Below are positions 8,127 to 50,765 of a DNA stretch of 52,835 bases, one piece after another. Location: positions 1 to 52,835 of the IMG/VR virus record IMGVR_UViG_3300022666_000286; one strand, given 5' to 3'. The stretch is from a virus. Its lineage: Duplodnaviria > Caudoviricetes. Each line of letters starts with the position of its first letter. Within the stretch, counting starts at the first letter, position 1. The translations under genes were made by a program, and so were the position numbers. The notes under the pieces were generated by a model that ran no database searches, was not told the origin of the DNA, and saw only the letters and a program-made list of their open reading frames with translations.

Positions 8127-8152
8127 GGCCACCCAATAACTATTGTTTGCCC
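8127..8152. repeat. dif/lox-like site 1 (GGCCACCCAA-TAACTA-TTGTTTGCCC)
   Basis: Member of a 7-copy arm-6-arm family; intergenic. Confidence 0.7.
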
Positions 8153-8547
8153 TAAATTGTCTTGAGCAGGCCGGCCAGTTCCGCCGCCGTCTCTTCCGCC
8201 GCTTTGTACAAAAACGACTGCCGCGCTTCCTGGTAGCTGCTGTACTCCATCCCGGCAGCTACCGCGGCGGCATCATTGCTGCCCAACTCCACCGCCGGAG
8301 CCATTCGCCCTTTGGGATTACAGGCTGCGGCGGCGGCCTTGGCCGCGCCGTAATTGCCGCCGTCGGGCAAGACCACGTAAATCCCATTCAGCATGGCCCC
8401 GGTATCCACCTGGTCATTCGCCACTATGTTGGCCCTGGCCCGCTCCTCAATGCGATGGGCTACGACGGCAATGGTTTCCCGCGTGGCCGCCCGAAGCTCA
8501 ACCAATACGTTGCCGGTATAGAAATTAACCTTCCCGTTCAGGCTCAT
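8152..8547 (-). CDS. HK97 gp10-like tail-completion protein
   Basis: VDTGAMLNGI, EYSSYQE, FLYKA motifs; canonical position. Confidence 0.75.
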   Translation of the reverse strand: MSLNGKVNFYTGNVLVELRAATRETIAVVAHRIEERARANIVANDQVDTGAMLNGIYVVLPDGGNYGAAKAAAAACNPKGRMAPAVELGSNDAAAVAAGMEYSSYQEARQSFLYKAAEETAAELAGLLKTI

Positions 8548-8731
8548 TTCCGGTTGTTTCCAGCGTCTCCGCTACCGCGGCCAGCGCGTCGGCCATCGCC
8601 TCGTTTTGCTGCCGCAGCCGCGCCGCCGGATCGCCGCTCTGCACCATCAGCGCCTCCAGGTACACCGGGTTCAGCCCCAGCATCCTGGTTAGTTTTTCCA
8701 CCGCCACCACCGCTTTTGGTAATGCGTCCAT
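8525..8731 (-). CDS. Small hypothetical protein
   Basis: 68 aa, start overlaps upstream stop; helical sequence more plausible than the alternative frame 8544..8738. Confidence 0.5.
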   Translation of the reverse strand: MDALPKAVVAVEKLTRMLGLNPVYLEALMVQSGDPAARLRQQNEAMADALAAVAETLETTGNEPEREG

Positions 8732-9081
8732 CAGTCACCCGCCACCGAAAAAATACCCACCGAAACCCCGGTCACCGCCGAGTAATCCAGGTATACCGAC
8801 CCCGGATCGGCGGCCACCTGGTTGTACTGCGCCGCCGGAAACGGCCCGATCATCTTTTCCCCGGTGGTGGCCCCCACCGTTACCGCGCGCCCGCTCACCG
8901 CCTGGCCGTCCACCGTCAGCGGGATTTGCGCGGTGACGGTAATGGCCGCCCCGGTGTTTTTGATATGAACAAAACTGCGCCCGTCGTTTGAAAACGAGTT
9001 ACCGCTTGAATTAGCCGCCGTGTATTGGGGCGTTACGCCCGCCCGGCTCAACGGTTGCACCGACAATGCTGTTCGCGCCAT
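8731..9081 (-). CDS. Putative beta-rich virion (decoration-type) protein
   Basis: Ala/Thr/Gly-rich, NDGRSFVHIKN...IGPF, within structural operon. Confidence 0.5.
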   Translation of the reverse strand: MARTALSVQPLSRAGVTPQYTAANSSGNSFSNDGRSFVHIKNTGAAITVTAQIPLTVDGQAVSGRAVTVGATTGEKMIGPFPAAQYNQVAADPGSVYLDYSAVTGVSVGIFSVAGD

Positions 9082-9083
9082 AA

Positions 9084-9599
9084 CTAACTGCTCCTTTGTA
9101 GTTCCTGCTCCAAATCTTCAATTTCCAACCGGATGTGCGCCGGCGTTTCCAGCCCCATCAGGGCGGCCTGCTCTTTCAGGCGATTGAGCCGCCGCTGTTT
9201 TTTAAGGATAACTTCCGGCGGCGTTGTCGCTGCCGGTTGGCGGTTGCAGGCCAGTTCGATCACCCGCGCCGCCAGCAATTCAAAGTCAAACGGTTTGATA
9301 AACACGTCATCCGCGCCGGCTTGCCGCAGGCATTCGCCCAGGCCGGGTTCAGCGTACCCGGTAATGGCGATAATCGGGGTGGCGGGGTCAAACTTCCGAA
9401 TCCGCCGGATGACCTCCACCCCGTTGATGCCCGGCAACCGCACGTCAATCAGCATCACCTCAAACGGCTGCTCCCGCGCCGCCCGCACCGCCTGCCGCCC
9501 ATCCAGGGCGTAGACAAAACTAAACCCGTTGTACTCTTTCAAAATGGTGGCAATAGTTGCCGCAATCTGGTCGTCGGCGATTAAAATTTTGATGTCCAT
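9084..9599 (-). CDS. Response regulator receiver (REC) protein with short C-terminal helical hairpin
   Basis: LIADD, phosphoacceptor IDVRLPG, IAITG, FIKPF all present. Confidence 0.9.
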   Translation of the reverse strand: MDIKILIADDQIAATIATILKEYNGFSFVYALDGRQAVRAAREQPFEVMLIDVRLPGINGVEVIRRIRKFDPATPIIAITGYAEPGLGECLRQAGADDVFIKPFDFELLAARVIELACNRQPAATTPPEVILKKQRRLNRLKEQAALMGLETPAHIRLEIEDLEQELQRSS

Positions 9600-9601
9600 C
9601 G

Positions 9602-9901
9602 CTAAACTTTGGTTACGGCGGCCAGATCCGCGCTCAACCGGGCCGCCTCGCGGGCCATATCCCGCAGGCTGGTTTCCAGTTCGTGAATTTTAGCCTGGGA
9701 TTGCAGTTGAATTTCACTCAGCTTTACCTGCAAGGCAAAGTTTTCCTCATCCAGCCGGTTGATGCGTTCGTTCTGCCGCTCAAGCTGGGCCTTCAACGCC
9801 GCCACCGTTCGCCCGGAATTGCGGCTGGTGGTATGGCTGCCGCCCACCCAGGCAATTAAAAACAACACCCCGATTACCAACCCAAACATCAATTCGGTCA
9901 T
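9602..9901 (-). CDS. Single-TM coiled-coil protein (possible lysis accessory)
   Basis: N-terminal hydrophobic helix, then heptad-rich coil. Confidence 0.5.
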   Translation of the reverse strand: MTELMFGLVIGVLFLIAWVGGSHTTSRNSGRTVAALKAQLERQNERINRLDEENFALQVKLSEIQLQSQAKIHELETSLRDMAREAARLSADLAAVTKV

Positions 9902-9904
9902 AAA

Positions 9905-10282
9905 TCAACTCACCAGTTTTAACTGCGCTTCAACTCCCACCCAGGTTAAACGCGGCGGCCCCACCACTTCATAGACCTCCGGCTCCGCCAACGCCTCGCC
10001 GTGCAGGTGCGTCAGCCTGATCCGGTCGGCGGCGGCCAGCACCGTGTTAACCGGCAGATGCAGCCGGGCCTGCGCTGCCGGTACGTGGGATTGCGCCAGC
10101 GTTTCCTGCCGGCTCTCCGCCCGGAACAGACACGGCAGCGGGTCGCCCTCGATATACGCCGCCGCCGGCACGCCGTAGGCATTGGCGGGTTGTGGCGCGT
10201 GAGCCAATCTGACGCAGGTATCCTGTAACGCCGTCTGGTGGATCAGCCGCAGCCGGTTAATTGTGGCGTCAGAAATCAACAT
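9905..10282 (-). CDS. Head closure / stopper protein (SPP1 gp16-like)
   Basis: LQDTC, LPVNT...DRI, YEVVG motifs; position. Confidence 0.7.
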   Translation of the reverse strand: MLISDATINRLRLIHQTALQDTCVRLAHAPQPANAYGVPAAAYIEGDPLPCLFRAESRQETLAQSHVPAAQARLHLPVNTVLAAADRIRLTHLHGEALAEPEVYEVVGPPRLTWVGVEAQLKLVS

Positions 10283-10288
10283 CTTGCC

Positions 10289-10672
10289 TCAGAACACAAA
10301 CGCGGTCGGCACGTAGCCGGATTGCAGCTTGTTGCCGCCGCCGGGGGTGCCGAGGTAACTTTGATAGTTGTCCCAATGCTGCCGGGCCTGCTGCAAAAAA
10401 AACTCAATCCGCCCCTTTGAAACCGAACGCGAAACATCATCAACCGTTACTGTGTCCGGCTCGCTGGCCAGCCGCTCGGCAATGTGGCTGTAGGCCCGGT
10501 AATACACCCAGTCGGTTATGGCCGCCGCCTGAAACCCGGCCGCAACGCCGCTGAGTTTGCCGGCGGCCTGGGCCAGCCACACCGTAACGTTGGCCTCCAG
10601 ATCGCCATCGGGGAAAAATGCCGGTTGCAACTGCCCGGCCGGGGCCAGAAAATCGGTAACGCTCAGGCTCAT
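10289..10672 (-). CDS. Head-tail adaptor protein
   Basis: 127 aa helical, precedes closure gene. Confidence 0.6.
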   Translation of the reverse strand: MSLSVTDFLAPAGQLQPAFFPDGDLEANVTVWLAQAAGKLSGVAAGFQAAAITDWVYYRAYSHIAERLASEPDTVTVDDVSRSVSKGRIEFFLQQARQHWDNYQSYLGTPGGGNKLQSGYVPTAFVF

Positions 10673-10878
10673 TGCGGCGGCTCGTCTGGCCTGGCTTCTA
10701 TTTTGGCCCGTTCCTTGCCAAAATCGGCCAACCCCTGGCCAATGATGTAGGCTGCCAGCAGGCCCACCGCTTCGCTCACCGGCAACGCGCTGCTGCCGGG
10801 CACTACCTGCTCCAATAGCACCAGCGCCAGCCCCACCAGCGCCGCCTGAAACTTTTTGGATTTTAGAATCTCCATCAC
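10669..10878 (-). CDS. Putative holin-like small membrane protein
   Basis: LKSKKF + two TM helices + AYIIGQGLAD, charged tail. Confidence 0.55.
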   Translation of the reverse strand: MMEILKSKKFQAALVGLALVLLEQVVPGSSALPVSEAVGLLAAYIIGQGLADFGKERAKIEARPDEPPQ

Positions 10879-11186
10879 TCCACCTCGCCTATTGCCTGCA
10901 TAATCTGGCCGGCCAGTTTGGGGCCGATGCCCTTGATGGCCACCAGGGTGTCAAAATCCAGCTTGCGCGCCGCCGCTACCGTGCCGTAGCCGGCTTTGGC
11001 CAGGTACACCCGGCCCGGAAACTCTGCCGGTAACAGGTCGGCGTGCAAATTTTGCACAACTTCCGGCAGCCCCAACGATGGCAGCAGCCCGGCGGGAACA
11101 TCCACCCGCCCCGGCCCGTAATATCTGCGCTCGCCGGTGGCCGGGTCCAGGTAGCCGTAAGAGCCGGCCAGGTCAACCAGCGGCAT
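10875..11186 (-). CDS. Helix-hairpin-helix domain protein
   Basis: LVAIKGIGPKLA HhH motif. Confidence 0.7.
   Translation of the reverse strand: MPLVDLAGSYGYLDPATGERRYYGPGRVDVPAGLLPSLGLPEVVQNLHADLLPAEFPGRVYLAKAGYGTVAAARKLDFDTLVAIKGIGPKLAGQIMQAIGEVE
11043..11057. repeat. 15-bp near-palindrome GTGCAAAATTTGCAC (copy 1 of 4)
   Basis: Identical copies at 33894 and 50800, one mismatch at 50983. Confidence 0.6.
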
Positions 11187-11985
11187 CTGCCCCTGCCTTT
11201 ACTGCCGATCTTAGGCTGAACAGCCGCGCCAGCTTGCCCGGGTCAACCAGCACCGGCTTCCCGACCGCTTTTTCCTTAAAATGCACCGCCCAGGTGTCCC
11301 AATCCACAAACACCGTCTCCAAACCCTGCGCCCCAAACAGCAAACTCACATCGCGGGTAAAGGTCACGTCTTCGGTGCTGGCCTTGTGGGTTTCGTATTC
11401 GTCCGTCCACTCGTAGTAGAACCAGGGATGGGGCAGCCGGAGGGTTTGCCCACCCACCGGGTAGCCGCTGAAAATCCGCAGATCGATGGCAATCAGGCCG
11501 GTGGGCAGCGCCGCCACTGCTTCAATGCCGGACCGCTCCGCCGCTTCTTCCCGGCTGAACTGCGCCAGTTGATAATCCGGGTTGGGGTGATCCGATTCCA
11601 GGTTCTGCCAGCGGAAGATGTACACATTCTCGTGCGGCGGCGGGCCGCAGTAGGGCGCGGCAATCACCGTCGGGGCCTCGTGCCAGCGCCGGGCGATGAA
11701 ATCAAAGGCCCGGGGCCAGAATGCCGCCGCCGGGTTAATCAAATCCGGCCCCATATCGCTGTCCACCATCAGCAGAATATCCACGCCCTGGGCCAGCGCA
11801 TCCTGCACGCAGCGATTCCGGCTCATCGTCACCGGCGTATCATTCAGCCGCCAATGCACCAACTGCCCAATCCGTGGGTCGCTCATACACTGCACCACGG
11901 TGTTGATGACAAAATCCACTTCGCCCGGATGCTCGGCGTTGCCGCCCGGAAACCTGGCCAGCATTACGGTAAATTTTTGGTCCAT
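11173..11985 (-). CDS. GT-A fold glycosyltransferase-like protein
   Basis: SRNRCV...LLMVDSD (DxD), TGLIAID, PWF, TEDVTF motifs; start MDQKF after GGGAGA. Confidence 0.7.
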   Translation of the reverse strand: MDQKFTVMLARFPGGNAEHPGEVDFVINTVVQCMSDPRIGQLVHWRLNDTPVTMSRNRCVQDALAQGVDILLMVDSDMGPDLINPAAAFWPRAFDFIARRWHEAPTVIAAPYCGPPPHENVYIFRWQNLESDHPNPDYQLAQFSREEAAERSGIEAVAALPTGLIAIDLRIFSGYPVGGQTLRLPHPWFYYEWTDEYETHKASTEDVTFTRDVSLLFGAQGLETVFVDWDTWAVHFKEKAVGKPVLVDPGKLARLFSLRSAVKAGADAAG

Positions 11986-12008
11986 CCCATCTCCCTGAGA
12001 TAATAAGA

Positions 12009-12043
12009 CCAGGACAGACGGCGACATTTGCCGTCTGCCCTGG
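12009..12043 (-). terminator. Hairpin / terminator after major capsid gene
   Basis: CCAGGGCAGACGGC-loop-GCCGTCTGTCCTGG followed by TCTTATT. Confidence 0.6.
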
Positions 12044-12047
12044 TGGG

Positions 12048-13160
12048 TTAGCTGCTCATCCCGGTGGTGGCCACCACAATCCGCTCCGGCGCTTCGATCA
12101 CCGGCAGGCCGTTGCTCACGCCGCGCCCTTCCAACGCCCACGGCTCCTGCTCCGGCGTGTACACATCCGCCCAGCGACCGGGCTTCCCGCCGCCCTCGAC
12201 CGTTGGCCCCAAATGGGTGTAGCCCAACCCGTATTCCACCTTCTGGGTTGAGCCTTCGCCCACAATGTAGCGCGGGCGGGTATCGCTGCCGATGAACAGC
12301 ACTTTGCCCCGGGGCATAAACGGCACGGTGACGGTTTGGCCGGGGTTGGCCAAATCCATAATCTCGCCTTCCAGCCCATAGGGGATGAGCGACAGCCGGT
12401 ACAGGTCGTTCTGGTCCAGGTTGGGGTTGGTGTCGCTGCCGCCGGCGCGCCGGACAATGGTGATTACCCCGTTGTTGTCGGTGACTTGCCCGATGGCGTT
12501 GACGCTGTTGTACAGGATGTCGTCAATGGTGTCGGGGTGGGCTACCACCGCCCGGATTTCCCGCTTCAGGGCTTTGCGGGCCAGCTTCACATCTTCCCAC
12601 CACTTGGAGGTGGTGCCGCTGTAGATGTCGTTCCCGGTTCTGGCGGTGAGCAGGTTGGCCGCCGGGATACCGTAGCTCACCACCAGCGCCTTTTTGTTAA
12701 AAGTCCAGTTGATGGCCCCGGCCACCAGCGCCTGCCCGCGCAGCCATTCAAACGTGTCCAGGTGGGCCTGCACAATCAGCTTGTCCACAAAGTTCAGCGC
12801 CTCGTTTTGCAGCGTGGCCAGCGTGGGCTGCTGGTTGAGCAGCATGTGCATCATCATATTTTGCAGTTGCCGCAGCGCCGCTTCCGGCAGCCGCACCCGG
12901 TTGGCAATCTTGGCCGTTTCTTCGGTAAAGGTGCTCACCTCAACCAGCCCGCCTTCGGCATACGGCGAGTCCATCGCCGCCAGCCCGGCCATAGTGGTGC
13001 GCACGGTCATACTGCCGCTTTTGGCCTGGTAATCGTAGCTGTTGCGCTCCGGCAGCAGCGTGGCAAACAGGTAATTGGCCGGGGGCCGGGCCGCGTTGGC
13101 CACCTGAAACGCCGCCCCCTGGGGCAGCGCCGCTAACGCCTGAGAAAAGTTAAAGTTCAT
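12048..13160 (-). CDS. Major capsid protein (lambda gpE-like, HK97 fold)
   Basis: 370 aa from MNFNF with GGAGG RBS; EWLRGQAL..G, YGIPA, C-terminal LPVI; follows scaffold and decoration genes. Confidence 0.85.
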   Translation of the reverse strand: MNFNFSQALAALPQGAAFQVANAARPPANYLFATLLPERNSYDYQAKSGSMTVRTTMAGLAAMDSPYAEGGLVEVSTFTEETAKIANRVRLPEAALRQLQNMMMHMLLNQQPTLATLQNEALNFVDKLIVQAHLDTFEWLRGQALVAGAINWTFNKKALVVSYGIPAANLLTARTGNDIYSGTTSKWWEDVKLARKALKREIRAVVAHPDTIDDILYNSVNAIGQVTDNNGVITIVRRAGGSDTNPNLDQNDLYRLSLIPYGLEGEIMDLANPGQTVTVPFMPRGKVLFIGSDTRPRYIVGEGSTQKVEYGLGYTHLGPTVEGGGKPGRWADVYTPEQEPWALEGRGVSNGLPVIEAPERIVVATTGMSS

Positions 13161-13170
13161 CTTGGGCCTC

Positions 13171-13830
13171 CTAGCTCCGGGTGTCCGCGTATTGCTCAAA
13201 CGCAAAGCCGGTTGATTTGGGGGTGGTGGCGTTGCTCAGTTCGGTCTTGTAAGCATCCGGCAGCGCCCCGGTGGTGCCGCCGGTGGCATCCGGCAGCAGG
13301 TTTTCGTACAGCGCCCCGCCGATGATCAGCCCGTAGCCGGTTTTGGCCGCGCTCACATCGCCCTCGATGGCGTTGGCTTCCAGAAAGCCCGCGCACGCCT
13401 CCGAGCCGGGCCGGTCGCTGCGGGGGGCAATCTTGCCGTTGGCCAGTTCCACCATCGCCTTGCCGGCGGGCAGGGTTTTGGCGGCGGTGCCGGCCACTAT
13501 GGCCGTGTTGCCGCTGGCTAAATTCTGCGGAATGGCCTGCACGCTCAACTGGGTGGCCCCGGTAGTGGCCGCCGCCGTGAGCAGGGCATATTTGGCCGTG
13601 CTGCCAAAATACAGCGCCGCCCCGGTGGGGATGTTTACCGGCAGCGCCAGCACCGGAATCTGCGTGGCCCCGGTGGTGGCTCCGGCGGTGGCCACCGTCA
13701 CCGAGGCCGTGCCCTGCCGGAACGTGTCCGGCACCACGCTCCAATCTACCTGCCGCCCGGAATTGTGGTTGACGCTGCGCGGATCAACCACAAACGGCGG
13801 GCGGGTCACAAACATTCGTTGTCGTCCCAT
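13171..13830 (-). CDS. Head decoration protein with inserted Ala/Thr-rich domain
   Basis: Between scaffold and MCP; KTLPAGK, G.LYENLLP motifs. Confidence 0.65.
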   Translation of the reverse strand: MGRQRMFVTRPPFVVDPRSVNHNSGRQVDWSVVPDTFRQGTASVTVATAGATTGATQIPVLALPVNIPTGAALYFGSTAKYALLTAAATTGATQLSVQAIPQNLASGNTAIVAGTAAKTLPAGKAMVELANGKIAPRSDRPGSEACAGFLEANAIEGDVSAAKTGYGLIIGGALYENLLPDATGGTTGALPDAYKTELSNATTPKSTGFAFEQYADTRS

Positions 13831-13862
13831 AAGATTTTCTCCTTACCGTAGACCTTGCCGGC

Positions 13863-14549
13863 CTACTTCTTTACCAATGGATTCGTTTGGCTGTCACGGG
13901 CTTCCTGCGCCTTTTTGATGAAGTCACTGACCACATCTCCCCTGAGAGACTGGCCGCCCGTACCCTGCGGAATAAACCGGGTGCCCGGCGGGCCGGCTTC
14001 CAGCCGCAGCGCCGGCAGAAAATCGGCAAAATTCCGGCTCACGTATTCATCCAGGTTAAGCGCCTGGCCATCACTGCCGGTCACAAACGCCGCCGGCTTT
14101 TTCTGCCCATCCTTTTCCACTTCGCGCATTTCAACCTGCGCCTCTTTTACCAGCGCCTTCAGCACGCTCGCCTTGTAGCCGTGCGCCGTGGCTGCCGTTT
14201 CCAGCAGGCTCTCCCGCTTCAGCGCGGCCAGTTCGGTTTGGGCCGTTTGCAGTTCGCCCTGAAACCTCTTCAGGTCGTCCGGCGCGCCGAGCGCCTGGTA
14301 CGCCGCCAGCAGTTTGGCCTCAGCCGCGCCCAGGATGACCGCGCCCTCTGCCGGCACTTTCCCCTCAAGCTGCTTTACCTGTTCCTTTAACCCGCGATTT
14401 TTGTCGCGCAGTTGGTAGTTGTCATTGAACAGGTGGTTGATTACCGCCGTCAGGTCATTGTTGTGGCGCTGGATGAGCGCCTGCACCCCGGCCTCCGGGC
14501 CGGGCGGCGGGGTAGCCGGTGGGGTTGGGGTATTGTTGTCATCACTCAT
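13863..14549 (-). CDS. Capsid scaffolding protein
   Basis: Pro-rich N-terminus, coiled coils, position before decoration/MCP. Confidence 0.7.
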   Translation of the reverse strand: MSDDNNTPTPPATPPPGPEAGVQALIQRHNNDLTAVINHLFNDNYQLRDKNRGLKEQVKQLEGKVPAEGAVILGAAEAKLLAAYQALGAPDDLKRFQGELQTAQTELAALKRESLLETAATAHGYKASVLKALVKEAQVEMREVEKDGQKKPAAFVTGSDGQALNLDEYVSRNFADFLPALRLEAGPPGTRFIPQGTGGQSLRGDVVSDFIKKAQEARDSQTNPLVKK

Positions 14550-14566
14550 CGTTTGCTCCTTGAGCT

Positions 14567-14604
14567 AAAATAAAAAGCCACGCTGTCAAATTGACAGCGT
14601 GGCT
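14567..14604 (-). terminator. Intrinsic terminator / attenuator just upstream of scaffold gene
   Basis: Perfect 14-bp inverted repeat AGCCACGCTGTCAA/TTGACAGCGTGGCT, then TTTTATTTT on minus strand. Confidence 0.7.
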
Positions 14605-14679
14605 GATCCAGGCAGGCTACAAAAATTATTAGCCGTGGGGGCCAACGCCCGCAGGGCTGCTCGATGCGTTTGTACTCAC

Positions 14680-14799
14680 TTACCGCAAAATGCGTTTGCT
14701 CTCCGGGGCTTTGTGGCCCGTTACCAGTTTGAACAGCGCCGCGCAAAAGGCGATGGCCGCCCGCACCAGTTCTTCATACGCCTGAAGCTGATGTTCCAT
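14680..14799 (-). CDS. 39-aa putative leaderless peptide
   Basis: MEHQLQAYEELVRAAIAFCAALFKLVTGHKAPESKRILR; ATG 7 nt after the -10 box. Confidence 0.45.
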   Translation of the reverse strand: MEHQLQAYEELVRAAIAFCAALFKLVTGHKAPESKRILR

Positions 14800-14805
14800 A
14801 CCTAT

Positions 14806-14834
14806 ATTTTAGCAAATTTGTTCTGCAAGTGCAA
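14806..14834 (-). promoter_or_regulatory. Head-operon promoter with LexA-like box
   Basis: TTGCAC-N17-TAAAAT with extended TG; AGAACAAATTTGCT in spacer. Confidence 0.6.
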
Positions 14835-14892
14835 TAGTTTGATGATGTTGAGATAGAGATAGGTTGCGTTGACAGTGCCACCTAGACACAAC

Positions 14893-15159
14893 CTATGTTA
14901 TTTCTAATGATAATGGCAGAGTACCAAGTTCATTGATGCTACAAATAGCAGATCGTATTATTTTAACGCTGTCTGCCACTTGGTTGGCCCCAATAGATTG
15001 TAGCAGCACAACAAACGTATCGCACTCGTAAGCCAAAATACCAACTGAATCGGATTTTGGTATGTCATCTTTAATAAAGTCCGAAAATTCTTCTTGACTT
15101 AACCAACCATTTCGGGCAAAACAAGGATCTACCCAGACAACATGTACTACTTTTAACAT
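14893..15159 (-). CDS. Low-GC hypothetical protein (moron-like)
   Basis: 88 aa; VVWVD...SVG motif common in small phage proteins; AT-rich relative to flanks. Confidence 0.6.
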   Translation of the reverse strand: MLKVVHVVWVDPCFARNGWLSQEEFSDFIKDDIPKSDSVGILAYECDTFVVLLQSIGANQVADSVKIIRSAICSINELGTLPLSLEIT

Positions 15160-15207
15160 AGGAGGTTTTACGGCAAAAATAAGTGTTTCTTTTTTTCTGT
15201 TATTTTC

Positions 15208-16233
15208 CTACCCGGCAATCTGCCGCAACTCACTCACCGGGCGCACCTGCGCCGATGGCCCCCAGGTTTCGTTCTCTACAATTTTCACCAGCCGGCGGAA
15301 CGGCACCGCCCCCCGCCGCCACAACTCATACCGCTCCGGCCCCATCCAGTCCCGCTGCACTGCCGGCTCAAGCGTTTTGAAATAGGCTTCACCCTGCGTT
15401 AACGGAATTTCGGCCAGCCCCCGAAGCAGCGGCAGCATCGCGCACCTGTCCTGCGGGTGTAGCGCCATCAACTCGCCGGTGTCGTAAATCGTTCCATCCA
15501 GGGCGATGCAGGCCAAACAGGTGCGGCCCGGCTGTTTGGCGGCCAGGCGGCGATACCCGTACACCACCCGGCTGTGTTGATATTGCTGCCGGGTGGCTTC
15601 CCGGTAGGCCCGCAAATGCTGATCCCGGCTGACCAATAAAATGTGGTTTAGCCCCTGGGCCAGCCCCTCCCGCATAATGCGCCGCGTTACCTCGCGGGGG
15701 TTAATCCCCAGCGCCACTCCCTCAATTAGCTTTTGGGTGATGCCGCTGGCCGAGAGCGGATATGCGGCCTCAAGCAGCCGGTTAAGCGGCTGGCCGGCCC
15801 GCGCCAGCGCCGCAATATTCTCCGTGGCCTCAATCCCCAGGCGGGTAAAGCTCAGGGCCACCGCCGGGTTTTGCCCAAAATATTCCAACGACGCCCCCAT
15901 CAGCTCAACCGCGTGAGCCAACCCCTGCCCGGCGGCTGTTTGCTGGCCCCGGTCAATCTGCTCTGCCGCCCAACGCCCGTACCGGCTGATCTGGGCCTGC
16001 GTTTGCGCCAGCAACCGGTGATACCGTTCCAGCCGGAACAACCGGGCCTCGCTGACCGGCTCGCCGGCCTGCCGCTGCGCCGCCAATTGTTCCGCCAGCC
16101 CGGCAATCTCCGCCTCCAGCGCGGCTTCCACCGGCAGCCACCGCCGCGCCATCTCCCTTGCCGCCGCCTGCTCTCCCGCAATCAATTGCTGCCTAAACTC
16201 CCCGGCCAGCGTTACCACTTTCGGTTCAGCCAT
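15208..16233 (-). CDS. Minor head protein (MuF / SPP1 gp7-like)
   Basis: RTCLACIALDG...HPQDRC motif; follows portal. Confidence 0.85.
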   Translation of the reverse strand: MAEPKVVTLAGEFRQQLIAGEQAAAREMARRWLPVEAALEAEIAGLAEQLAAQRQAGEPVSEARLFRLERYHRLLAQTQAQISRYGRWAAEQIDRGQQTAAGQGLAHAVELMGASLEYFGQNPAVALSFTRLGIEATENIAALARAGQPLNRLLEAAYPLSASGITQKLIEGVALGINPREVTRRIMREGLAQGLNHILLVSRDQHLRAYREATRQQYQHSRVVYGYRRLAAKQPGRTCLACIALDGTIYDTGELMALHPQDRCAMLPLLRGLAEIPLTQGEAYFKTLEPAVQRDWMGPERYELWRRGAVPFRRLVKIVENETWGPSAQVRPVSELRQIAG

Positions 16234-16256: not shown

Positions 16257-16282
16257 GGCCACCCAAGCGATCTTGTTGGCCC
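16257..16282. repeat. dif/lox-like site 2 (GGCCACCCAA-GCGATC-TTGTTGGCCC)
   Basis: Family member; between portal and MuF, next to a minus-strand TATAAT at 16246-16251. Confidence 0.7.
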
Positions 16283-27530: not shown

Positions 27531-27556
27531 GGGCTAACAAGAAGTATTGTTCTACC
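27531..27556. repeat. dif/lox-like site 3 (GGGCTAACAA-GAAGTA-TTGTTCTACC)
   Basis: Family member; overlaps stop of J-domain gene. Confidence 0.6.
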
Positions 27557-33089: not shown

Positions 33090-33115
33090 GGTTACACAAG
33101 CAACGTTGTTGGCCC
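33090..33115. repeat. dif/lox-like site 4 (GGTTACACAA-GCAACG-TTGTTGGCCC)
   Basis: Arms identical to inverted site at 43895; overlaps E1 stop codon. Confidence 0.8.
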
Positions 33116-39107: not shown

Positions 39108-39133
39108 GGTTACACAATCTGCCTTGTGTGACC
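39108..39133. repeat. dif/lox-like site 5 (GGTTACACAA-TCTGCC-TTGTGTGACC)
   Basis: Intergenic near-perfect inverted arms. Confidence 0.8.
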
Positions 39134-43235: not shown

Positions 43236-43329
43236 TCCTTCCAGTTATGGTAAATTAGCAGGGTCTTGTAACCCTTTTCTGTTCCGCGAAGGCTCGCCGC
43301 TTGCCTCGGCGAGCCTTCTTTGTTTTTTT
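43228..43329 (+). ncRNA. Putative antisense sRNA unit opposite the parM leader
   Basis: TTGAAC-N17-TAAATT, then GAAGGCTCGCCG/CGGCGAGCCTTC hairpin and T run. Confidence 0.55.
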
Positions 43330-43535: not shown

Positions 43536-43833
43536 TCTTGGATGCGTCTCCTTTCCGCAGTTGCCGGGCCTGCCAGCTTTTCCGGGCCGCCTCAAAACCA
43601 ACCTTTACCGCCCCGCTAACGCCCACCGCAAAAAACAGGCCAATCCAGGTTTTTACATCCCACACCCCTAAAATAAGCAGTGGAATACCCAGGTAAAAAA
43701 CCGTAAAGTACCCCATTGTCCACCGGTGGGCCTCTTTGCGTTCCCACAAAATTCCAAACGTGGCGGCTTCAAGCAGGATGATAAGGGCCAGGCCGCTCCA
43801 GTAAACCAGGTGGTAAGCGTTAAAAAGTTCCAT
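43510..43833 (-). CDS. Three-TM membrane protein
   Basis: Hydrophobic helices; AAGGAGG upstream. Confidence 0.7.
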   Translation of the reverse strand: MELFNAYHLVYWSGLALIILLEAATFGILWERKEAHRWTMGYFTVFYLGIPLLILGVWDVKTWIGLFFAVGVSGAVKVGFEAARKSWQARQLRKGDASKNGTSPWRG

Positions 43834-43894
43834 TTTTATTACAAGCCTCCTTTTCTATGCTACACTGGTACAAAACCAGCACCTTAACAACTCA

Positions 43895-43920
43895 GGGCCA
43901 ACAATTATGCTTGTGTAACC
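43895..43920. repeat. dif/lox-like site 6 (GGGCCAACAA-TTATGC-TTGTGTAACC)
   Basis: About 120 bp downstream of the tyrosine recombinase gene. Confidence 0.8.
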
Positions 43921-44041
43921 TGCACCATTAACTAAACCTCGGCCTTTTGCCCCTTTAGCCGAGGCGGGGCGGGGCAATTGTGCTCTATCCGCAGCCGGAA
44001 GCAAGCCCCACAAGTGGGACACATCCACCTTTGGGTGAATA

Positions 44042-45238
44042 TCAGGGGCACCGCCCACAGGCCGGCTGTAGCGGCAATTGCTCCCCCGCCGGCTTTTGGC
44101 GGCGACGGTATTTACTTTTGGGCAGCAATTCTTCGGCGGCGGCCTGCCCGCCTTTATCTACGGGATCATCCAGCACCCGGCTGGCGTAAATTTGGGTTAC
44201 GGCCAGGCTGCTGTGCCCCAGCAAATTCATTACCTCCTCAAAGTCAACCCCGCCCCGGCTCCGGCGCATTTGCTGCACCCGCAGCCGCGCCCCGGCGTGG
44301 CGCAGGCCGTGAACGTGGGCCTTGCTTTTTTCTACCCCGGCGCGCCGGGCGTATTTTTTTAAAATCCGGTTCACCAGGCTGTTGCTAACCGGCTGGTTAG
44401 GGTCAACCTCGGCCCCGGGATTAATCCGCTTGATCCGTTCTTCGTCCATGGGGATAAAGATGTAATCCTGCTCCTGCATTTTGCCCCACCGGCCATCGGC
44501 CTTGAGGTAGGCTACAATGGCCTGGTAGCAGTTGCGGTTGAGTACCGCCAGTTTTATCTGGCCGCCTTTGTAGCGATAGTTAAAGGCGTGGTGGCCGTCA
44601 TCGGTTTGCTTTAAATCACCCCACTTCAGGTTGAGGATTTCCGAGGAGCGCCGGCACGTCACCATGTAGGTGTACAGCAGGGCAAAGTCTCGCTTGCCGG
44701 TTAAGCACTCCGTATTGATGGCCGCCAAAATGGCTTTGGCCTCATCGCCGCTGGGGTATTTGGCCCGCCCATACGGGCTAACCTTGGCCCGGTCTACGCT
44801 ATCAAACGGGTTACGCCGATCCGCCGGCCACAGGTCATATTTTTTCTGCACAAAGTTGTAAAAATCCCCCAGAGCGGCCAGCTTCAGGTTGAAGGTGCTC
44901 TTGGCCAGCGGCTCGCGCCCCACCACCAGCCCGGTTTTGCGGTCAATCACCGCTTTTCCTTCGCGGCCCAAAAAGGCGGCCCACCGCTCGGCCAGTTCCG
45001 GGGTTACTGCCCAGGGGCGCACCTGCCCCCAGCGAAAAAACTGCTTCCAGGCGGTTTCGTAATTGCCCGCCGTGCTGCCGGTATCGTTTTGCCGGCGCTT
45101 CCCTTCTAACCAGTGATGGTAGGCGTCAATCCAGGCCATCCATAGCTGGGTATCCTCATCGCCAAATACCAGCCCGTCGAGAATGGTTAGGTTAGCTGTT
45201 GCCGGAATCACTGTCAGTTCGGCTGCTTCAGTTTTCAT
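44042..45238 (-). CDS. XerC/D-like tyrosine recombinase
   Basis: CRRSSEI (R), YKGG (K), HGLRH, LLGHSSLAVTQIY: full catalytic set. Confidence 0.93.
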   Translation of the reverse strand: MKTEAAELTVIPATANLTILDGLVFGDEDTQLWMAWIDAYHHWLEGKRRQNDTGSTAGNYETAWKQFFRWGQVRPWAVTPELAERWAAFLGREGKAVIDRKTGLVVGREPLAKSTFNLKLAALGDFYNFVQKKYDLWPADRRNPFDSVDRAKVSPYGRAKYPSGDEAKAILAAINTECLTGKRDFALLYTYMVTCRRSSEILNLKWGDLKQTDDGHHAFNYRYKGGQIKLAVLNRNCYQAIVAYLKADGRWGKMQEQDYIFIPMDEERIKRINPGAEVDPNQPVSNSLVNRILKKYARRAGVEKSKAHVHGLRHAGARLRVQQMRRSRGGVDFEEVMNLLGHSSLAVTQIYASRVLDDPVDKGGQAAAEELLPKSKYRRRQKPAGEQLPLQPACGRCP

Positions 45239-45413
45239 TCTTTATCTGTCCTATCGCCACTTCGGTCATAGCCAGCACCATCAGCCGGATAAACCGGGTT
45301 CGCTCGTCGGTAGCCGCCAAAACTTTTTGCTCCACAAACCTGGCCATCCGTTCCAACGCCTGTTTTTCCCGTTCTTTTGGTGAAAGCGCCTCGGCACTCA
45401 ATAACGCTGTCAT
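45228..45413 (-). CDS. Small hypothetical protein
   Basis: ATGA-coupled. Confidence 0.5.
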   Translation of the reverse strand: MTALLSAEALSPKEREKQALERMARFVEQKVLAATDERTRFIRLMVLAMTEVAIGQIKNEN

Positions 45414-45631
45414 AGCTCCTCATCACGGCCATAATCGCCGTACAGATTGGGACCAAAAATAGAAGCTACCGCGCTTTGCATTGTTCGCCGCCCGCTGCCG
45501 CCGGCCTGGCGCGCCCGCCGCTTGCGGGCCGCCGCGTTTCGGCATTTTTGGCAGTACCAATGCTTGCGCCCATCCCGGCCTGTTTTGCCGGTCATTTTGT
45601 GGCCGCGTTTGCAAACTTTTTCATTGTTCAT
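45410..45631 (-). CDS. Small Zn-binding basic protein
   Basis: CKRGH...CQKCR. Confidence 0.6.
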   Translation of the reverse strand: MNNEKVCKRGHKMTGKTGRDGRKHWYCQKCRNAAARKRRARQAGGSGRRTMQSAVASIFGPNLYGDYGRDEEL

Positions 45632-45792
45632 AACGCCACCTGCAACACCCGGCACTGGCCGTTTGCGTCATTCCACAGGATAGAACGGGTAGCCGGCGAT
45701 GGTTTGGCCCGTTTACGTTTACTTGCCGCCTGCGAGCCGGTGCAATTTATTTTTGTGACAAAGGAAAAAAACTGTGCTATAATATTTTTCAT
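45628..45792 (-). CDS. Small hypothetical protein
   Basis: MKNIIAQFF after AGAAAGGA RBS. Confidence 0.45.
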   Translation of the reverse strand: MKNIIAQFFSFVTKINCTGSQAASKRKRAKPSPATRSILWNDANGQCRVLQVAL

Positions 45793-45868
45793 AACAGAAC
45801 ATCCTTTCTCTGTTTTAAAGAGGTCCACCCGTGCTTTCCAGGGCGTTGGGGTGGGCCTCTTTCGTTTT
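45755..45868 (+). ncRNA. Putative antisense sRNA unit
   Basis: GTGACA-N17-TATAAT with extended TG; hairpin AAAGAGGTCCACCC/GGGTGGGCCTCTTT; covers RBS of ORF starting at 45792. Confidence 0.55.
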
Positions 45869-46003
45869 AAATACTCTCTATCTGCGCTGAGCCGCCAGGG
45901 GGCGGGGGTGAGCCGGCCTGCCACAAACCGGCTCACCCGAGGCTAAGGGGTCACAGGCGGGGGGAGAAGCCCGCCCACCGGCGGCTCAGGTTGCGTTTGG
46001 TTG

Positions 46004-46201
46004 TTACTCATCCTTCGGCAGTAGTTGGGCCAGGATTTCGTATTGGGCCAGGTGGTGGCGCAACACGCGCAGTTCGGTGAGCAGCGCCAACCCGGTGGAT
46101 TCCTCCCGTTGGTTGGTAAACAGGACGGCGCTTAATTCCTCATAACGCCGGTTCATTTTTTTCAGCGTTTCCAGCGCGGCAAGCGGGTTATCAAAAATCA
46201 T
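46004..46201 (-). CDS. Small coiled-coil protein
   Basis: ATGA-coupled, MIFDNPL. Confidence 0.5.
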   Translation of the reverse strand: MIFDNPLAALETLKKMNRRYEELSAVLFTNQREESTGLALLTELRVLRHHLAQYEILAQLLPKDE

Positions 46202-46395
46202 TGCGTCGCCTCTGCTAACCACTTATCCCGCTTTTGCCGGCAAGCGAACAGGGTTGGGGCTACGCAGCTAAATAGTTTGCCGGTCTCGGTGCGATAATAG
46301 TCATACTGGTACATCGTACCTCTGGGAGTTTTGAACGTTTCATACTGTTCTTCTCCTTTTGTGGTGGTTGAACACCCGTTCATATCGATTTTCAT
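46198..46395 (-). CDS. DUF3873-like small protein
   Basis: NGCST..GEEQYE.F...QYDY...G.LFSCV.PTL..CR..RDKWL. Confidence 0.7.
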   Translation of the reverse strand: MKIDMNGCSTTTKGEEQYETFKTPRGTMYQYDYYRTETGKLFSCVAPTLFACRQKRDKWLAEATQ

Positions 46396-46420
46396 TTTCT
46401 CAATCCTTTTTGGGTAAGAC

Positions 46421-46705
46421 TTAAATTTCATCGCCGGGGCCGGTGCCCAGATATTCATAATTAGTTGGGGCTGCTTCAAGCTGTGAGGTTTTGGCCGGAG
46501 GGTTGGGGATAAAACCGGGCAAACTGCGCACCAGGCGCGATTCATTTTCCAGCCCAGGAAACTGCAATGTGCGGTACTTCTGCACAAATTCAGCCATGGC
46601 AATATCAACCGCTGCCTGAAACTTCCAACGGTTGCGCTCGGCAATAGCTCGCGCCTCTTTCAACACATCGTCTTCTATCCTGACACTGATAAATGTTCTC
46701 GACAT
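46421..46705 (-). CDS. Ribbon-helix-helix regulator in Cro position
   Basis: TFISVRIEDDVLKEARAIAE; first gene of leftward operon. Confidence 0.65.
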   Translation of the reverse strand: MSRTFISVRIEDDVLKEARAIAERNRWKFQAAVDIAMAEFVQKYRTLQFPGLENESRLVRSLPGFIPNPPAKTSQLEAAPTNYEYLGTGPGDEI

Positions 46706-46733
46706 TCGTCTATCTCTTTCGCAATATTTTTTA

Positions 46734-46867
46734 TTGCATTTGCAATGTTTTTGAATAAAAAAAACTAACGAGTAAGGATGTATTCAATATAACATATGTT
46801 ATTGCGATTGTCAACAACTGAATTGCAATCGCAATTAACAAAAACCTTAAAATTATTGCAAATGAAA
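46734..46867. promoter_or_regulatory. Immunity switch: leftward promoter and four TTGC-N4-GCAA-like operators
   Basis: Minus TTGACA(46814)-N17-TATATT; TTGCATTTGCAA 46734, TTGCGATTGTCA 46802, TTGCAATCGCAA 46823, TTGCAAATGAAA 46856. Confidence 0.7.
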
Positions 46868-47206
46868 AATCAATTATTCACTTGGATAAACGAAGAAGCA
46901 GAAAAACGCGATTGGAACAACAGTGAATTAGCAAGACGTGCAAAAATTTCACAGTCTAATCTTTCGCTTATACTTAGCGAGCAACGCAATGTTACGTGGG
47001 ATTTTTGCGAAGCAATAGCGAAGGCTTTTGGAGAACGGCCAGAAAAAGTATTCAGGCTGGCCGGTCTATTGCCGCCCAGTGCGGGGCAAATGCAGGATTT
47101 AAGCGAGGATGAGGGACGGCTGGTAGCGTTATACCGTGGCTCGTCGCCGTTGGCACGGGAGTGGATACTCAAGGCGGTGGAGGGGTTTGCGGACGGGAAG
47201 AAATAG
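46862..47206 (+). CDS. XRE-family repressor (CI-like, no peptidase domain)
   Basis: SELARRAKISQSNLSLI HTH; divergent from RHH gene. Confidence 0.88.
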   Translation: MKNQLFTWINEEAEKRDWNNSELARRAKISQSNLSLILSEQRNVTWDFCEAIAKAFGERPEKVFRLAGLLPPSAGQMQDLSEDEGRLVALYRGSSPLAREWILKAVEGFADGKK

Positions 47207-48741: not shown

Positions 48742-49005
48742 ATGAGTAATTACAACAAAGAGCCGTTATATCCTGGGGTAGACTCGCAACCCACGAAAAG
48801 AAATGGGCAATGGGGCAGATTTAATTCACCCCGATTTTTAATAGGGACAGGAATTGTTCTGGCAATTCTAATCATCTGTATTTTTTGTTGTTTGAGCATA
48901 GCTATAGTAGGGGCATTTTCTAGTGACACCAACAACAAAAGAATAAAACCAACCCCAACCGTGGGGATGATAGAACAGCGAGAAAGTATATGCCAGTTTG
49001 TGTAA
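48742..49005 (+). CDS. Small single-TM protein (possibly truncated relative of upstream gene)
   Basis: Cys-containing TM followed by PTPT. Confidence 0.5.
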   Translation: MSNYNKEPLYPGVDSQPTKRNGQWGRFNSPRFLIGTGIVLAILIICIFCCLSIAIVGAFSSDTNNKRIKPTPTVGMIEQRESICQFV

Positions 49006-49958
49006 GATGTCGTCGGGAAGTTGGCCTACTCAGTGGGTTAGTGGATTTTAACCGAAAAACCCAACGTTGTGGCAATTGCGACAGGCAAGTTAAAGACCAA
49101 TTACTTCATTTTCGGAATGCCTTTTTAACTTATTGCAAAGATGGGATTTTATCTCCCCAAGAGTGGCATTATTTACAAATTGGTTCAGTGCGGGCTGGTT
49201 TGGATTGGGACGAAGCCTTAGAATTTATTAGAACCGATACGCTGTACTTTTTGGAGCGAACCTTAACCTTTATTGCCGAAGATGGGATTATCACCGAAGA
49301 GGAAGCCGGTTATTTCCAATCCTTAATTCAACAATTACAGTTATCTCCCGAACTGGTTAAACCTCTAACTGAACGGTTAATTTATCAAAGAAGGATTTCC
49401 GATATTCGCCAGGGTAAACTGGCCACCATCCGGGCCACCATTCACCTGGAGCCAAATGAATTGTGTTACCTGGAAGACCAGGCGATTTACGAAAAGATAA
49501 AAGCCAAAGGGATCCAGTTTATACCGGGGCGGTTGATTGTGACCGACAAAAAAATACACTTCCTCTCTGATAACGGAGGCTGGACTATTATTTGGAAAAA
49601 TATAATGCGAGTAGAGCGGGATAGCCGTAGCATTTACTTGGAGTTAGCTACTCAAAAAGGAAATGGGCGCTACCAGATACCCGATCCACTTTTAGCAGAA
49701 GCAATATTGAATACTTTAACCAGATTAGCCAAAAGACAGCTACTTATACCCCAAGAAGGCAACGAAAGCCGACACATCCCCCAGGATATAAAAATAGCCG
49801 TCTGGCAGCGAGACCAAGGTAAGTGTGTTCAGTGTGGGAACACCTCTTACCTGGAATTTGACCATATTATTCCTTTCAGCAAAGGCGGCGCCAGCACAAC
49901 CAACAACGTACAATTGCTTTGTCGTAAATGTAATTTGGAAAAAGGGGATAGAATTTAG
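48990..49958 (+). CDS. Zn-ribbon / TerB-like / PH-like / HNH endonuclease fusion
   Basis: CVRC..CGNC; DGILSPQE and DGIITEEE; GRLIVTDKKIHF; RDQGKCVQCG...DHIIP..GG....NVQLLC..CN. Confidence 0.8.
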   Translation: MPVCVRCRREVGLLSGLVDFNRKTQRCGNCDRQVKDQLLHFRNAFLTYCKDGILSPQEWHYLQIGSVRAGLDWDEALEFIRTDTLYFLERTLTFIAEDGIITEEEAGYFQSLIQQLQLSPELVKPLTERLIYQRRISDIRQGKLATIRATIHLEPNELCYLEDQAIYEKIKAKGIQFIPGRLIVTDKKIHFLSDNGGWTIIWKNIMRVERDSRSIYLELATQKGNGRYQIPDPLLAEAILNTLTRLAKRQLLIPQEGNESRHIPQDIKIAVWQRDQGKCVQCGNTSYLEFDHIIPFSKGGASTTNNVQLLCRKCNLEKGDRI

Positions 49959-49963
49959 GTCAG

Positions 49964-50143
49964 ATGAAACGGGAATTTACAGCGACGGTATGGGCAGAAT
50001 ATGGGGTTTGGGTGGCGCAATGCCTGGAGGTAGATGTGGCCAGCCAGGGGGATACTGAAACAGAGGCGTTAAAAAACCTGCAAGAAGCGTTGGAACTCCA
50101 TTTTGAAGCGCCGGTGGCCACCATAGTTTTTAAGCCGGTTTGA
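49964..50143 (+). CDS. HicB-like antitoxin domain (59 aa, no HicA partner seen)
   Basis: Not in track: MKREFTATVWAEYGVWVAQCLEVDVASQGDTETEALKNLQEALELHFE. Confidence 0.75.
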   Translation: MKREFTATVWAEYGVWVAQCLEVDVASQGDTETEALKNLQEALELHFEAPVATIVFKPV

Positions 50144-50165
50144 GCGCAGAAGAATTTAAGGAACC

Positions 50166-50735
50166 GTGAAAGAGAGAAAGACTATCAAACGGATTAAGCC
50201 GGGCGGCTGGCTGATGGCCGCCATTTTATTGTTATCCGTAGGGTGCAGCTTAACGGGGCGGATACAGGGAAGTGAACGCAACCGGATTCGCACCGTAGCC
50301 TCACCCGCATTGCGCCTTACGCCGGTAGCATTTTCCACACCGACAACCACGCCAATCTTGTCCACCGTTACACCGGCTTTGGCCACGTCCACTCCAATCC
50401 CCCCCACTGACACGCCGATACCTCCAACTGCCATCCCGGTTCAGTCTACCGATACGCCGGTGCCGCCTGTGGCTACCCCGGTTTCACCCACCGACACGCC
50501 GATACCTCCAACCGCCACGCCGGTTTTGGCCCAACCTACCCCAACATCTGTTTCTAATTCGGCGATTGTGCCGGAGGTAAATTGCGATTGCTCCGCCAAT
50601 CTTTATAACTGTAAAGATTTCAAATCAGATGCCGAAGCCCAGGGCTGTTACCTCCATTGTTTGAATGCGGGTGCAGGTGATATTCACGATCTTGACCGCG
50701 ATCACGATGGCAACGCCTGTGAGTGGGATAAATGA
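50166..50735 (+). CDS. Lipoprotein with PT repeats and Excalibur-like Ca-binding domain
   Basis: Lipobox LSVGC; NCKDF...LDRDHDGNACE. Confidence 0.8.
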   Translation: MKERKTIKRIKPGGWLMAAILLLSVGCSLTGRIQGSERNRIRTVASPALRLTPVAFSTPTTTPILSTVTPALATSTPIPPTDTPIPPTAIPVQSTDTPVPPVATPVSPTDTPIPPTATPVLAQPTPTSVSNSAIVPEVNCDCSANLYNCKDFKSDAEAQGCYLHCLNAGAGDIHDLDRDHDGNACEWDK

Positions 50736-50739
50736 TACA

Positions 50740-50765
50740 GGTCATACAACTTACCTTGTGTGACC
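50740..50765. repeat. dif/lox-like site 7 (GGTCATACAA-CTTACC-TTGTGTGACC)
   Basis: Begins 5 bp after the lipoprotein stop. Confidence 0.8.

Follow-up and report, generated by a model that had tools for sequence, protein, structure and literature searches.

Evenly spaced dif/lox-type sites in a prophage family: possible docking sites for the phage's own tyrosine recombinase

What is a set of seven dif/lox-like sites for when it is spread along a prophage genome, and which protein reads it? The question arises from a 52,835-nucleotide stretch of viral DNA, positions 1 to 52,835 of the IMG/VR record IMGVR_UViG_3300022666_000286 (Duplodnaviria; Caudoviricetes), which was analysed at its full length and is called the window here. 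The original prediction, made from the letters alone, placed the sites between positions 8127 and 50765 and proposed that the phage's tyrosine recombinase uses them to swap functional modules between related phages. The sites turn out to be real, asymmetric, evenly spaced, held at conserved gene junctions and specific to one phage family, and their motif changes together with the recombinase. The reading favoured here is that they are lox/dif-type, core-type 11-6-11 docking sites for the phage's own recombinase, used copy against copy for resolving or circularising the phage DNA; its probability is put at about 40%.

All seven predicted sites are present where they had been placed (Table 1). 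The loose pattern GG-N5-CAA-N6-TTG-N5-CC matches the window eight times, whereas 100 shuffles averaged 0.27 matches and never exceeded 2; the eighth match, at 46185, fails the refined motif described below and is probably due to chance. The window is almost exactly contig C36 of a host assembly of 5.67 Mb in 71 contigs (98% complete), and the motif, which might have been equally frequent in host DNA, is confined to the prophage. In a weight-matrix scan of the whole assembly the seven window sites and one further site, C8:5107 on contig C8, score 30.8-40.1 bits, with the next best locus at 12.6 bits. Even the loose pattern matches eight times in C36 against 13 times across the remaining 5.61 Mb, and a stricter pattern matches 30 other genomes of the host's family 0-3 times each, about as often as the reversed-pattern control. 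Relaxed scans found no degenerate extra copies, so the sites form a discrete class.

A refined motif was obtained by aligning 28 sites of four genomes, namely the window and the IMG/VR contigs G047, G048 and G049, which are collinear with it at 64-93% nucleotide identity and carry 5, 5 and 11 copies, respectively (reversed-pattern controls, 0). It is asymmetric, with a strong arm cAGGTCACACAA, a 6-bp spacer and a weak arm TTGT-N4-CCTg, the latter reading TTGT-N4-CC-T(G/A) across the 28 sites. Every one of the 28 has inverted arms of 10-12 bp, a spacer of exactly 6 bp and conserved outer AGG and CCT 24 bp apart. A core-type tyrosine-recombinase site of the dif/lox class has this structure, with arms of about 11-13 bp around a spacer of 6-8 bp, and the 11-6-11 geometry that had been proposed thus gains indirect support, both from the invariant spacer length and from ten sites in the distant relative G054 that share this architecture. 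Within the window the arms recur as claimed (GGTTACACAA three times, GGCCACCCAA twice, GGTCACACAA twice and GGGCCAACAA three times in sites, the last with one stray copy outside them at 2971). The seven spacers are likewise all different, an observation that is uninformative by itself because with 4096 possible spacers it is the chance expectation. The spacer is poor in T on the strong-arm strand and begins with G in 19 of the 28 sites. Identical spacers between dissimilar flanks occur in two pairs of sites from distant genomes, 33090 with G049:47538 (GCAACG) and C8:5107 with G049:7200 (GCGGTG); about 0.7 such pairs are estimated by chance given the spacer composition. The former is the one orthologous pair that is identical in the spacer.

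The sites are fitted tightly into gene junctions. An upstream stop codon lies inside the site or at most 5 nt away at five of the seven sites, counting coding-strand genes, and 22 nt and 121 nt away at sites 2 and 6; only distances checked by eye on the coding strand are used, automated values being noisy since TTG within the site counts as a start codon. Site 1 shares its first base with the stop codon of gene 8152-8547 and has the start codon of gene 7735-8121 5 nt beyond it. It has orthologues in G047 (51703) and in fragment G052 (17394), and the same junction in G049 is without a site. The junction of site 2 is occupied in G047, G048 and G049 as well. Beyond site 3, at about 210 nt, starts the Hma defence operon, behind a conserved 160-bp segment, segment X (27341-27502). 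Site 4 is followed after 5 nt by the start of the next gene, and a site after the stop of the ThiF gene is found also in G049 and in G054 (13312). At this junction G048 has an extra gene (14452-14991) between ThiF and the site, and G047 has lost the site through a 2.3-kb deletion. Site 5, both of whose arms are near the consensus, abuts the stop codon of gene 39134-39526, lies 16 nt before the start of gene 38651-39091 and has orthologues in G047, G048, G049 and G053. Site 6, as had been noted, is close to the tyrosine recombinase gene, 121 nt past its stop, and it is 61 nt before gene 43510-43833. The site at this junction is the top-scoring one in all four genomes (40.1, 44.0, 43.8 and 40.9 bits), which amounts to about one observation because the sites are orthologous and not independent; in the metagenome contigs L055 and L073, too, a site lies just past the recombinase stop. 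Site 7 precedes the serine recombinase gene by 245 nt, and a site upstream of that gene recurs in G047, G048, G049, L051 and L056. Altogether five to six junctions retain a site among relatives whose flanking proteins are 44-68% identical.

The family that carries these sites has few known members. A megablast search of positions 27000-47000 against deposited phages gave no match. The strong-arm pattern retrieved three more fragments from IMG/VR and 29 loci from metagenomes, nine of which encode homologues of window proteins. The same scan of 185,579 species genomes gave five isolated matches in unrelated taxa of low G+C content, and these are treated as chance, about 17 being estimated by chance. 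A second lineage is represented by G051, with seven sites in 17.7 kb and arms of the form GGTC-NN-ACAA; it shares with G047 and G048 only an open reading frame (ORF) of 64 amino acids of the DUF551 family. The most informative relative, G054, was retrieved with a profile of the tyrosine recombinase. It is a 44.9-kb contig whose ends overlap exactly over 127 bp, indicating a circular assembly, and its recombinase is 44% identical to that of the window. It is devoid of the window motif and has instead ten sites of the same architecture in other letters, cAGGCGCAATAA-N6-TTATGGGACGag, with ten matches to ATAA-N6-TTAT against 0.22 expected. One of these lies directly after the ThiF gene, the same junction as window site 4. 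Detectable protein similarity between the two genomes is limited to the ubiquitin-like cassette, the tyrosine recombinase and weak matches in the Cro/CI helix-turn-helix and in a virion protein of 1066 amino acids; G054 also encodes a ParB-like protein related to that of C8. Architecture and position of the sites have thus been kept, and the letters that are recognised have shifted with the phage lineage. Short tandem arrays stand directly upstream of some sites: repeats containing ACGTT at G051:12160-12235 and 14560-14634, five copies of GTAGGGA at G049:10390-10462 and four copies of GGTTTGACA at G054:3290-3335.

The gaps between sites are more regular than those between the same number of random gene junctions. 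The coefficient of variation of the gaps is 0.28 in G054 (P 0.0001), 0.30 in the window (P 0.004), 0.20 in G051 (P 0.005), 0.56 in G049, which was assumed to be circular (P 0.035), 0.32 in G047 (P 0.06) and 0.51 in G048 (P 0.25). G054, G051 and the window clade constitute three largely independent site sets. Any explanation of the sites has to account for this even spacing.

Which protein reads the sites? The best candidate is the tyrosine recombinase, which we hold to be the binder with a little over an even chance. In NCBIfam it comes closest to XerA, XerD and XerC, with scores that fall far short of each family cut-off, and its best sequence match in the PDB is XerA (5hxy). The residues R196, K224, H310, R313, H342 and Y351 are invariant in six sequences, and the enzyme is predicted to be catalytically intact. 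A predicted model matches the folds of XerA, Cre and XerH, which is only indicative because its confidence is low (pLDDT 63, pTM 0.42). The recombinase is encoded in all five fuller site-bearing genomes, and none was seen in the available sequence of the fragments G051, G052 and G053. The four genomes with the same strong arm have recombinases that are 68-75% identical, and the 44% identical enzyme of G054 is accompanied by ATAA/TTAT sites. Among the proteins shared by the window and G054, only the recombinase has a matching site geometry, and enzymes of the Xer/Cre class use exactly such a geometry. The proposed link between enzyme and sites is thus supported, indirectly, by the Xer-like profile, the intact catalytic residues and the parallel change of motif.

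Two other proteins were considered as binders. The CI-like repressor was rejected: CI-like proteins are only 38-51% identical among the four genomes with an identical strong arm, the repeats of the immunity region differ between genomes and are unlike the sites, and motif scans found no site in the immunity region between the CI-like gene and the early operon. The case for a ParB-like protein is weakened by divergence of the same kind. Such proteins occur in all five fuller genomes and are 21-27% identical to that of C8, with recognition helices that differ despite the identical motif. A bona fide ParB gene starts 17 nt past C8:5107, and the ParB-like gene of G054 comes after a site (7804) and a TTGACA box. 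The tyrosine recombinase gene of G047 and G048 is directly preceded by a ParB-like gene (17762-18691 and 27305-28168, respectively) that encodes a C-terminal cysteine motif; the window has none at this spot.

The tyrosine recombinase seems free for such a task. The serine recombinase gene and the large terminase gene are 180 bp apart in G048 and at opposite ends in the provirus G047, which places attP between the two genes and makes the large serine recombinase the probable integrase; the tyrosine enzyme would then be available for something else. Comparison with G047 also extends the element beyond the window. The first 12.5 kb of C8 are collinear with the far end of provirus G047, so the prophage spans C36, a gap and C8, and the site C8:5107, between RadC and ParB, belongs to the same prophage. 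Contig C8 begins with a small ORF and the large terminase gene (657-2132; phrog_38, 2e-97; Terminase_6N/6C), followed by a methylase-beta-clamp fusion, RadC, the site (5107-5134), ParB, an MgsA_C protein and a TET-associated glycosyltransferase. This 7.6-kb cassette, which looks like a DNA-modification cassette and is missing from G047, is followed by a host histidine kinase gene (region C8:1-9700).

The favoured reading can be set out as a mechanism. The recombinase would dock on the strong arm cAGGTCACACAA and on the weaker arm TTGT-N4-CCTg and would not read the 6-bp spacer. As each site has a spacer of its own, different sites of one genome cannot recombine, and a site would react only with another copy of itself. 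The second copy could be supplied by a sister genome in a multimer or by the terminal redundancy of a circularly permuted, headful-packaged genome, and many evenly spaced sites would raise the chance of a usable pair on any molecule. The outcome would be multimer resolution of a plasmid-like replicon, circularisation or both, and not the exchange of modules between phages. ParM and an FtsK-like ATPase are encoded near the recombinase. A more specific version, which we consider rather unlikely, is that headful-packaged, permuted genomes have their redundant ends closed at evenly spread lox-like sites with private spacers. Host recombination would not be needed, as the recombinase itself would close the circle and afterwards resolve multimers; deletion between unlike sites would be barred by the private spacers, and the gain of cassettes beside sites would be an occasional by-product. 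This version would account for how many sites there are and how evenly they are spaced, as well as for arms that are conserved and spacers that are free. Its precedent is the circularisation of P1 DNA by Cre-lox. The T4-type large terminase (Terminase_6N/6C), the Mu F-like head protein and the circular assembly of G054 are compatible with headful packaging and do not prove it.

Several observations weigh against resolution or circularisation by the recombinase. Its putative link to the sites comes from profile and geometry, and headful packaging is itself putative. In G054 no site adjoins the recombinase gene, the nearest being 1.9 kb off, and the window gene lies within the early leftward operon, so that the enzyme may not be present when needed. 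Five contigs from four genomes that carry more distant recombinase homologues (E values from 1e-43 to 1e-25) show no multi-site motif. The tail region is free of sites over 13-17 kb, so that many permuted genomes would carry no site in duplicate unless their redundancy were long. The retention of sites at five to six junctions is not needed for pure resolution or circularisation and looks more like a position-specific regulatory role, and the location of sites within operons, 1-23 nt before start codons, suits a roadblock equally well.

Docking by the recombinase has to be weighed against other explanations. The least probable of these is that the sites are RNA hairpins, acting as terminators or processing sites, or an artefact of chance or composition. 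The sites are indeed intergenic and roughly palindromic, but the two arms of one site often match each other poorly (site 2 has 6 of 10 pairs, and mismatches reach 4 in 10 positions), one arm sequence is paired with different partner arms in different sites, there are no compensatory changes and no run of T follows the sites. Arms that are not self-complementary point to a double-stranded DNA site for a two-protomer protein, and the hairpin was dropped once the arms had been inspected; chance is ruled out by the shuffles, the reversed-pattern controls, the relaxed scans and the weight-matrix scan of the genome. The sites might also mimic the host chromosomal dif and be worked by the host XerC/XerD, as in Xer-exploiting elements and pdif sites. 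The 11-6-11 geometry and the inner bases of the G054 sites, ATAA-N6-TTAT, which are those of classical dif sites, speak for such mimicry. It is very unlikely all the same, since no host locus resembles the sites (none other exceeds 12.6 bits), the phage encodes an Xer-like enzyme of its own and the motif varies between phage lineages. The programmed mosaicism of the original prediction, a pdif-like exchange of modules or cassettes between related phages at position-specific sites, is clearly unlikely, though cassettes do end at sites. The Hma cassette has its upstream end at site 3, a three-gene insert relative to G049 ends at site 4, and in G047 and G048 an 11-kb type IIG restriction-modification (R-M) cassette ends at the site before the serine recombinase gene. 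The extra gene of G048 abuts a site at 14461, and sites are cleanly gained or lost at otherwise conserved junctions. A variant contig of sequencing run X3 matches window positions 27560-33087, from just past site 3 to just before site 4. Homologous copies of segment X, each adjoining a site, head two different defence cassettes at two map positions, HmaABC in the window (18038-27318) and a type IIG restriction-methylase with a TnpB/Cas12f-like gene in G048 (32094-42550) and also in G047; only segment X, and no whole cassette, was seen in two contexts. A degenerate, hybrid-looking site near the far end of the G048 cassette (32307-32336, CAGG...ATAA...CCTG, 12 of 14 template positions), between its last two genes, could be a decayed second boundary. 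Against this, the cassettes have a site at one end only (at their other ends the Hma cassette and the three-gene insert score below -20 bits at best), successive sites do not alternate in orientation (in G049 at least 8 of 11 point the same way), and the switch from 93% to 72% identity with the closest relative, G047, at about 14530 is not at a site. Bounding by two inversely oriented sites and resemblance to the host dif, which define pdif modules, are both missing. Nor are the spacers position-specific, as the proposal had held: orthologous junctions of the window clade and G049 share 2.43 of 6 bases against 2.15 of 6 for non-orthologous ones, and between close relatives most junctions show 1-5 spacer differences in 6 positions. 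Spacer mismatches block tyrosine recombination, so orthologous partners should not recombine. The predicted coincidence of synteny breakpoints with sites also failed overall. Counting boundaries of protein-level homology at most 300 bp from a site against random gene junctions, 28 of 198 were found where 21.1 were expected (P 0.11), with 3 of 43 in the window, 2 of 45 in G047 and 3 of 36 in G048 (P 0.68-0.85); G049, with 20 of 74 against 9.6 expected (P 0.006), counts in favour, albeit by re-using the same boundaries against three close relatives. No site-to-site joint was seen in the contigs of three sequencing runs, which is weak evidence as contigs drop rare forms, and which has no bearing on events between copies of one site.

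A phage DNA-binding protein could instead occupy the sites within operons and before start codons, as a roadblock or operator that controls read-through or silences the genome. This is possible but on balance doubtful. The protein might be the recombinase acting without recombining, a ParB-like protein or an unrecognised factor. An operator function had been the fallback of the original prediction and survives as a live rival; its specific argument, an overlap of site 2 with a -35 box, was not reproduced in a promoter scan of 7000-18500, which gave no match at 16257-16282. The sites occupy very short intergenic gaps, stop codons and the last nucleotides before start codons, with the promoters and terminators of the units elsewhere, as would suit a roadblock. 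The same can be said of the junctions that retain a site across the family, of the conservation of the arms alone with a free spacer, of an even spacing that fits a sliding or spreading protein, and of the ParB-like proteins of all five fuller genomes, encoded next to a site on C8 and in G054. A precedent in favour is provided by stoperators, numerous repressor sites that stop elongation across a phage genome according to PMC9283540. The likely binders fit less well: the immunity region has different repeats and no site, CI-like proteins diverge while the strong arm is invariant, and the recognition helices of ParB-like proteins differ between genomes sharing the motif. Orientation relative to transcription is flipped in G049 at the site 5 junction compared with the window, G047 and G048, which speaks against a polar roadblock, and site 6 is inverted relative to most other sites. 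Promoter and terminator scans revealed no constant relation to the sites, whose placement with respect to promoter-like boxes varies. A helix-turn-helix dimer, moreover, would not usually have a site of 30 bp with conserved ends 24 bp apart and a spacer of exactly 6 bp. The sites also differ from stoperators in that none serves as an early-promoter operator in the immunity region and that their orientation is not uniform.

Family searches bear out, broadly, the functional description that had been given of the intervals between sites (Table 1). G047, G048 and G049 lack the Hma cassette, which adjoins site 3 at its upstream end and has a terminator and no site at its downstream end. The ubiquitin-like conjugation cassette (33092-36863) comprises an E2 of family D, JAB, a ThiF-type E1 and two unknown genes. 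All five fuller genomes carry it, fragment G053 has a portion of it (E2, JAB, E1), and it travels with the recombinase. The immunity region (46645-46830) contains TTGCAAT-like repeats and a near-consensus leftward promoter (TTGACA-17-TATATT, 46814-46786), and the differing repeats of each relative suggest different immunity types. The host assembly strongly avoids CTGCAG, with 33 copies in 5.67 Mb where GAATTC has 342, which hints at a PstI-type restriction system; a 16S rRNA gene was not found in this assembly, and a HIP1 test for a cyanobacterial host gave a negative result.

Table 1. Sites and principal genes of the window, with scores from the weight matrix or the source of the assignment.
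Feature	Position	Strand	Score, context or source
Site 1	8127..8152	.	34.6 bits; between two minus-strand virion genes
Site 2	16257..16282	.	35.1 bits; operon-internal, between the 530-amino-acid putative portal gene and the Mu F-like head morphogenesis gene
Site 3	27531..27556	.	30.8 bits; spans the stop codon of a DnaJ-domain ORF
Site 4	33090..33115	.	37.9 bits; spans the end of the ThiF-like E1 gene (last 8 codons, stop)
Site 5	39108..39133	.	31.9 bits
Site 6	43895..43920	.	40.1 bits, top score of the window; head of the ParM operon
Site 7	50740..50765	.	35.2 bits; 4 nt past the stop of 50166-50735 (+)
Eighth loose match	46185..46210	.	<10 bits, <12/14 template positions
Major head protein	12048-13205	-	family search
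Mu F-like head morphogenesis protein	15208-16233	-	Phage_Mu_F
Putative portal, 530 amino acids	16305-17897	-	no family match
HmaC/HmaB/HmaA defence cassette	18038-27318	-	family search
AAA ATPase and DnaA_N-domain proteins	28664-30678	-	family search
ThiF/JAB/E2 ubiquitin-like cassette	33092-35160	-	family search
DUF3102 protein	37687-38628	-	family search
FtsK-like ATPase	39493-40959	-	family search
ParM/Alp-like actin	42162-43235	-	family search
Tyrosine recombinase, 398 amino acids, Xer/Cre-like	44042-45238	-	Pfam Phage_integrase 1.7e-20
Cro/CI-type helix-turn-helix protein	46796-47206	+	family search
Large serine recombinase, 531 amino acids	51011-52606	+	Pfam Resolvase 2.7e-28; best NCBIfam match XisF-like, below cut-off

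In the open literature searched (supplements and subscription journals were outside the search) no phage with a genome-wide set of dif/lox-like sites was found described. Should the recombinase use these sites, this would be the first known phage family with genome-wide, evenly spaced and mutually incompatible lox/dif-type sites. It would represent a new viral route to circularise or maintain DNA and, of practical interest, orthogonal recombination sites provided by nature for a single enzyme. If the roadblock were true instead, the sites would be a new way of punctuating operons. In either case they mark the locations of defence cassettes (Hma, type IIG R-M) in these phages.

A close structural parallel among known systems is the dif site of the XerA, XerH, XerS and XerC/XerD systems, which likewise has inverted arms of about 11 bp, a 6-bp spacer, one better conserved arm, inner arm bases that are the most conserved and a simple two-domain tyrosine recombinase. 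A dif site is present once per replicon, whereas these phages have 5-11 sites per 45-66-kb genome, at gene junctions; their letters are ACAA/TTGT, their recombinase is far below the Xer cut-offs and the host genome contains nothing similar. The Cre-loxP system of P1 resolves plasmid dimers and can circularise terminally redundant infecting DNA. It, too, joins a temperate phage or plasmid to a simple tyrosine recombinase and a core-only site, but P1 has a single 13-8-13 site and the present phages have many evenly spaced 11-6-11 sites, each with a spacer of its own. The operators of IncP ParB/KorB and the centromere sites of the plasmid-prophage N15 are dispersed palindromes of 13-16 bp without a spacer. 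Like the present sites they occur severally on a 45-60-kb replicon with partition genes, and a ParB gene stands directly behind one site on C8; the ParB-like proteins found here, by contrast, diverge despite an identical motif. The stoperators of cluster A mycobacteriophages (PMC9283540, PMC6550527) resemble the phage sites in their many copies within short intergenic gaps and at start or stop codons, but they are short, asymmetric and bound by a monomeric immunity repressor that also binds the early promoter, whereas the present sites are two-fold, 30 bp long, absent from the immunity region and able to flip in orientation. With the pdif sites and dif modules of Acinetobacter plasmids, as described in PMC6449649, the phages have in common many dif-like sites per mobile replicon and accessory cassettes that in some cases abut a site; they differ in their one-ended cassettes, non-alternating orientation, phage-encoded recombinase and lack of similarity to the host dif. 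The phage set thus has the structure of core-type recombinase sites and stands apart from both pdif modules and stoperators in their defining features.

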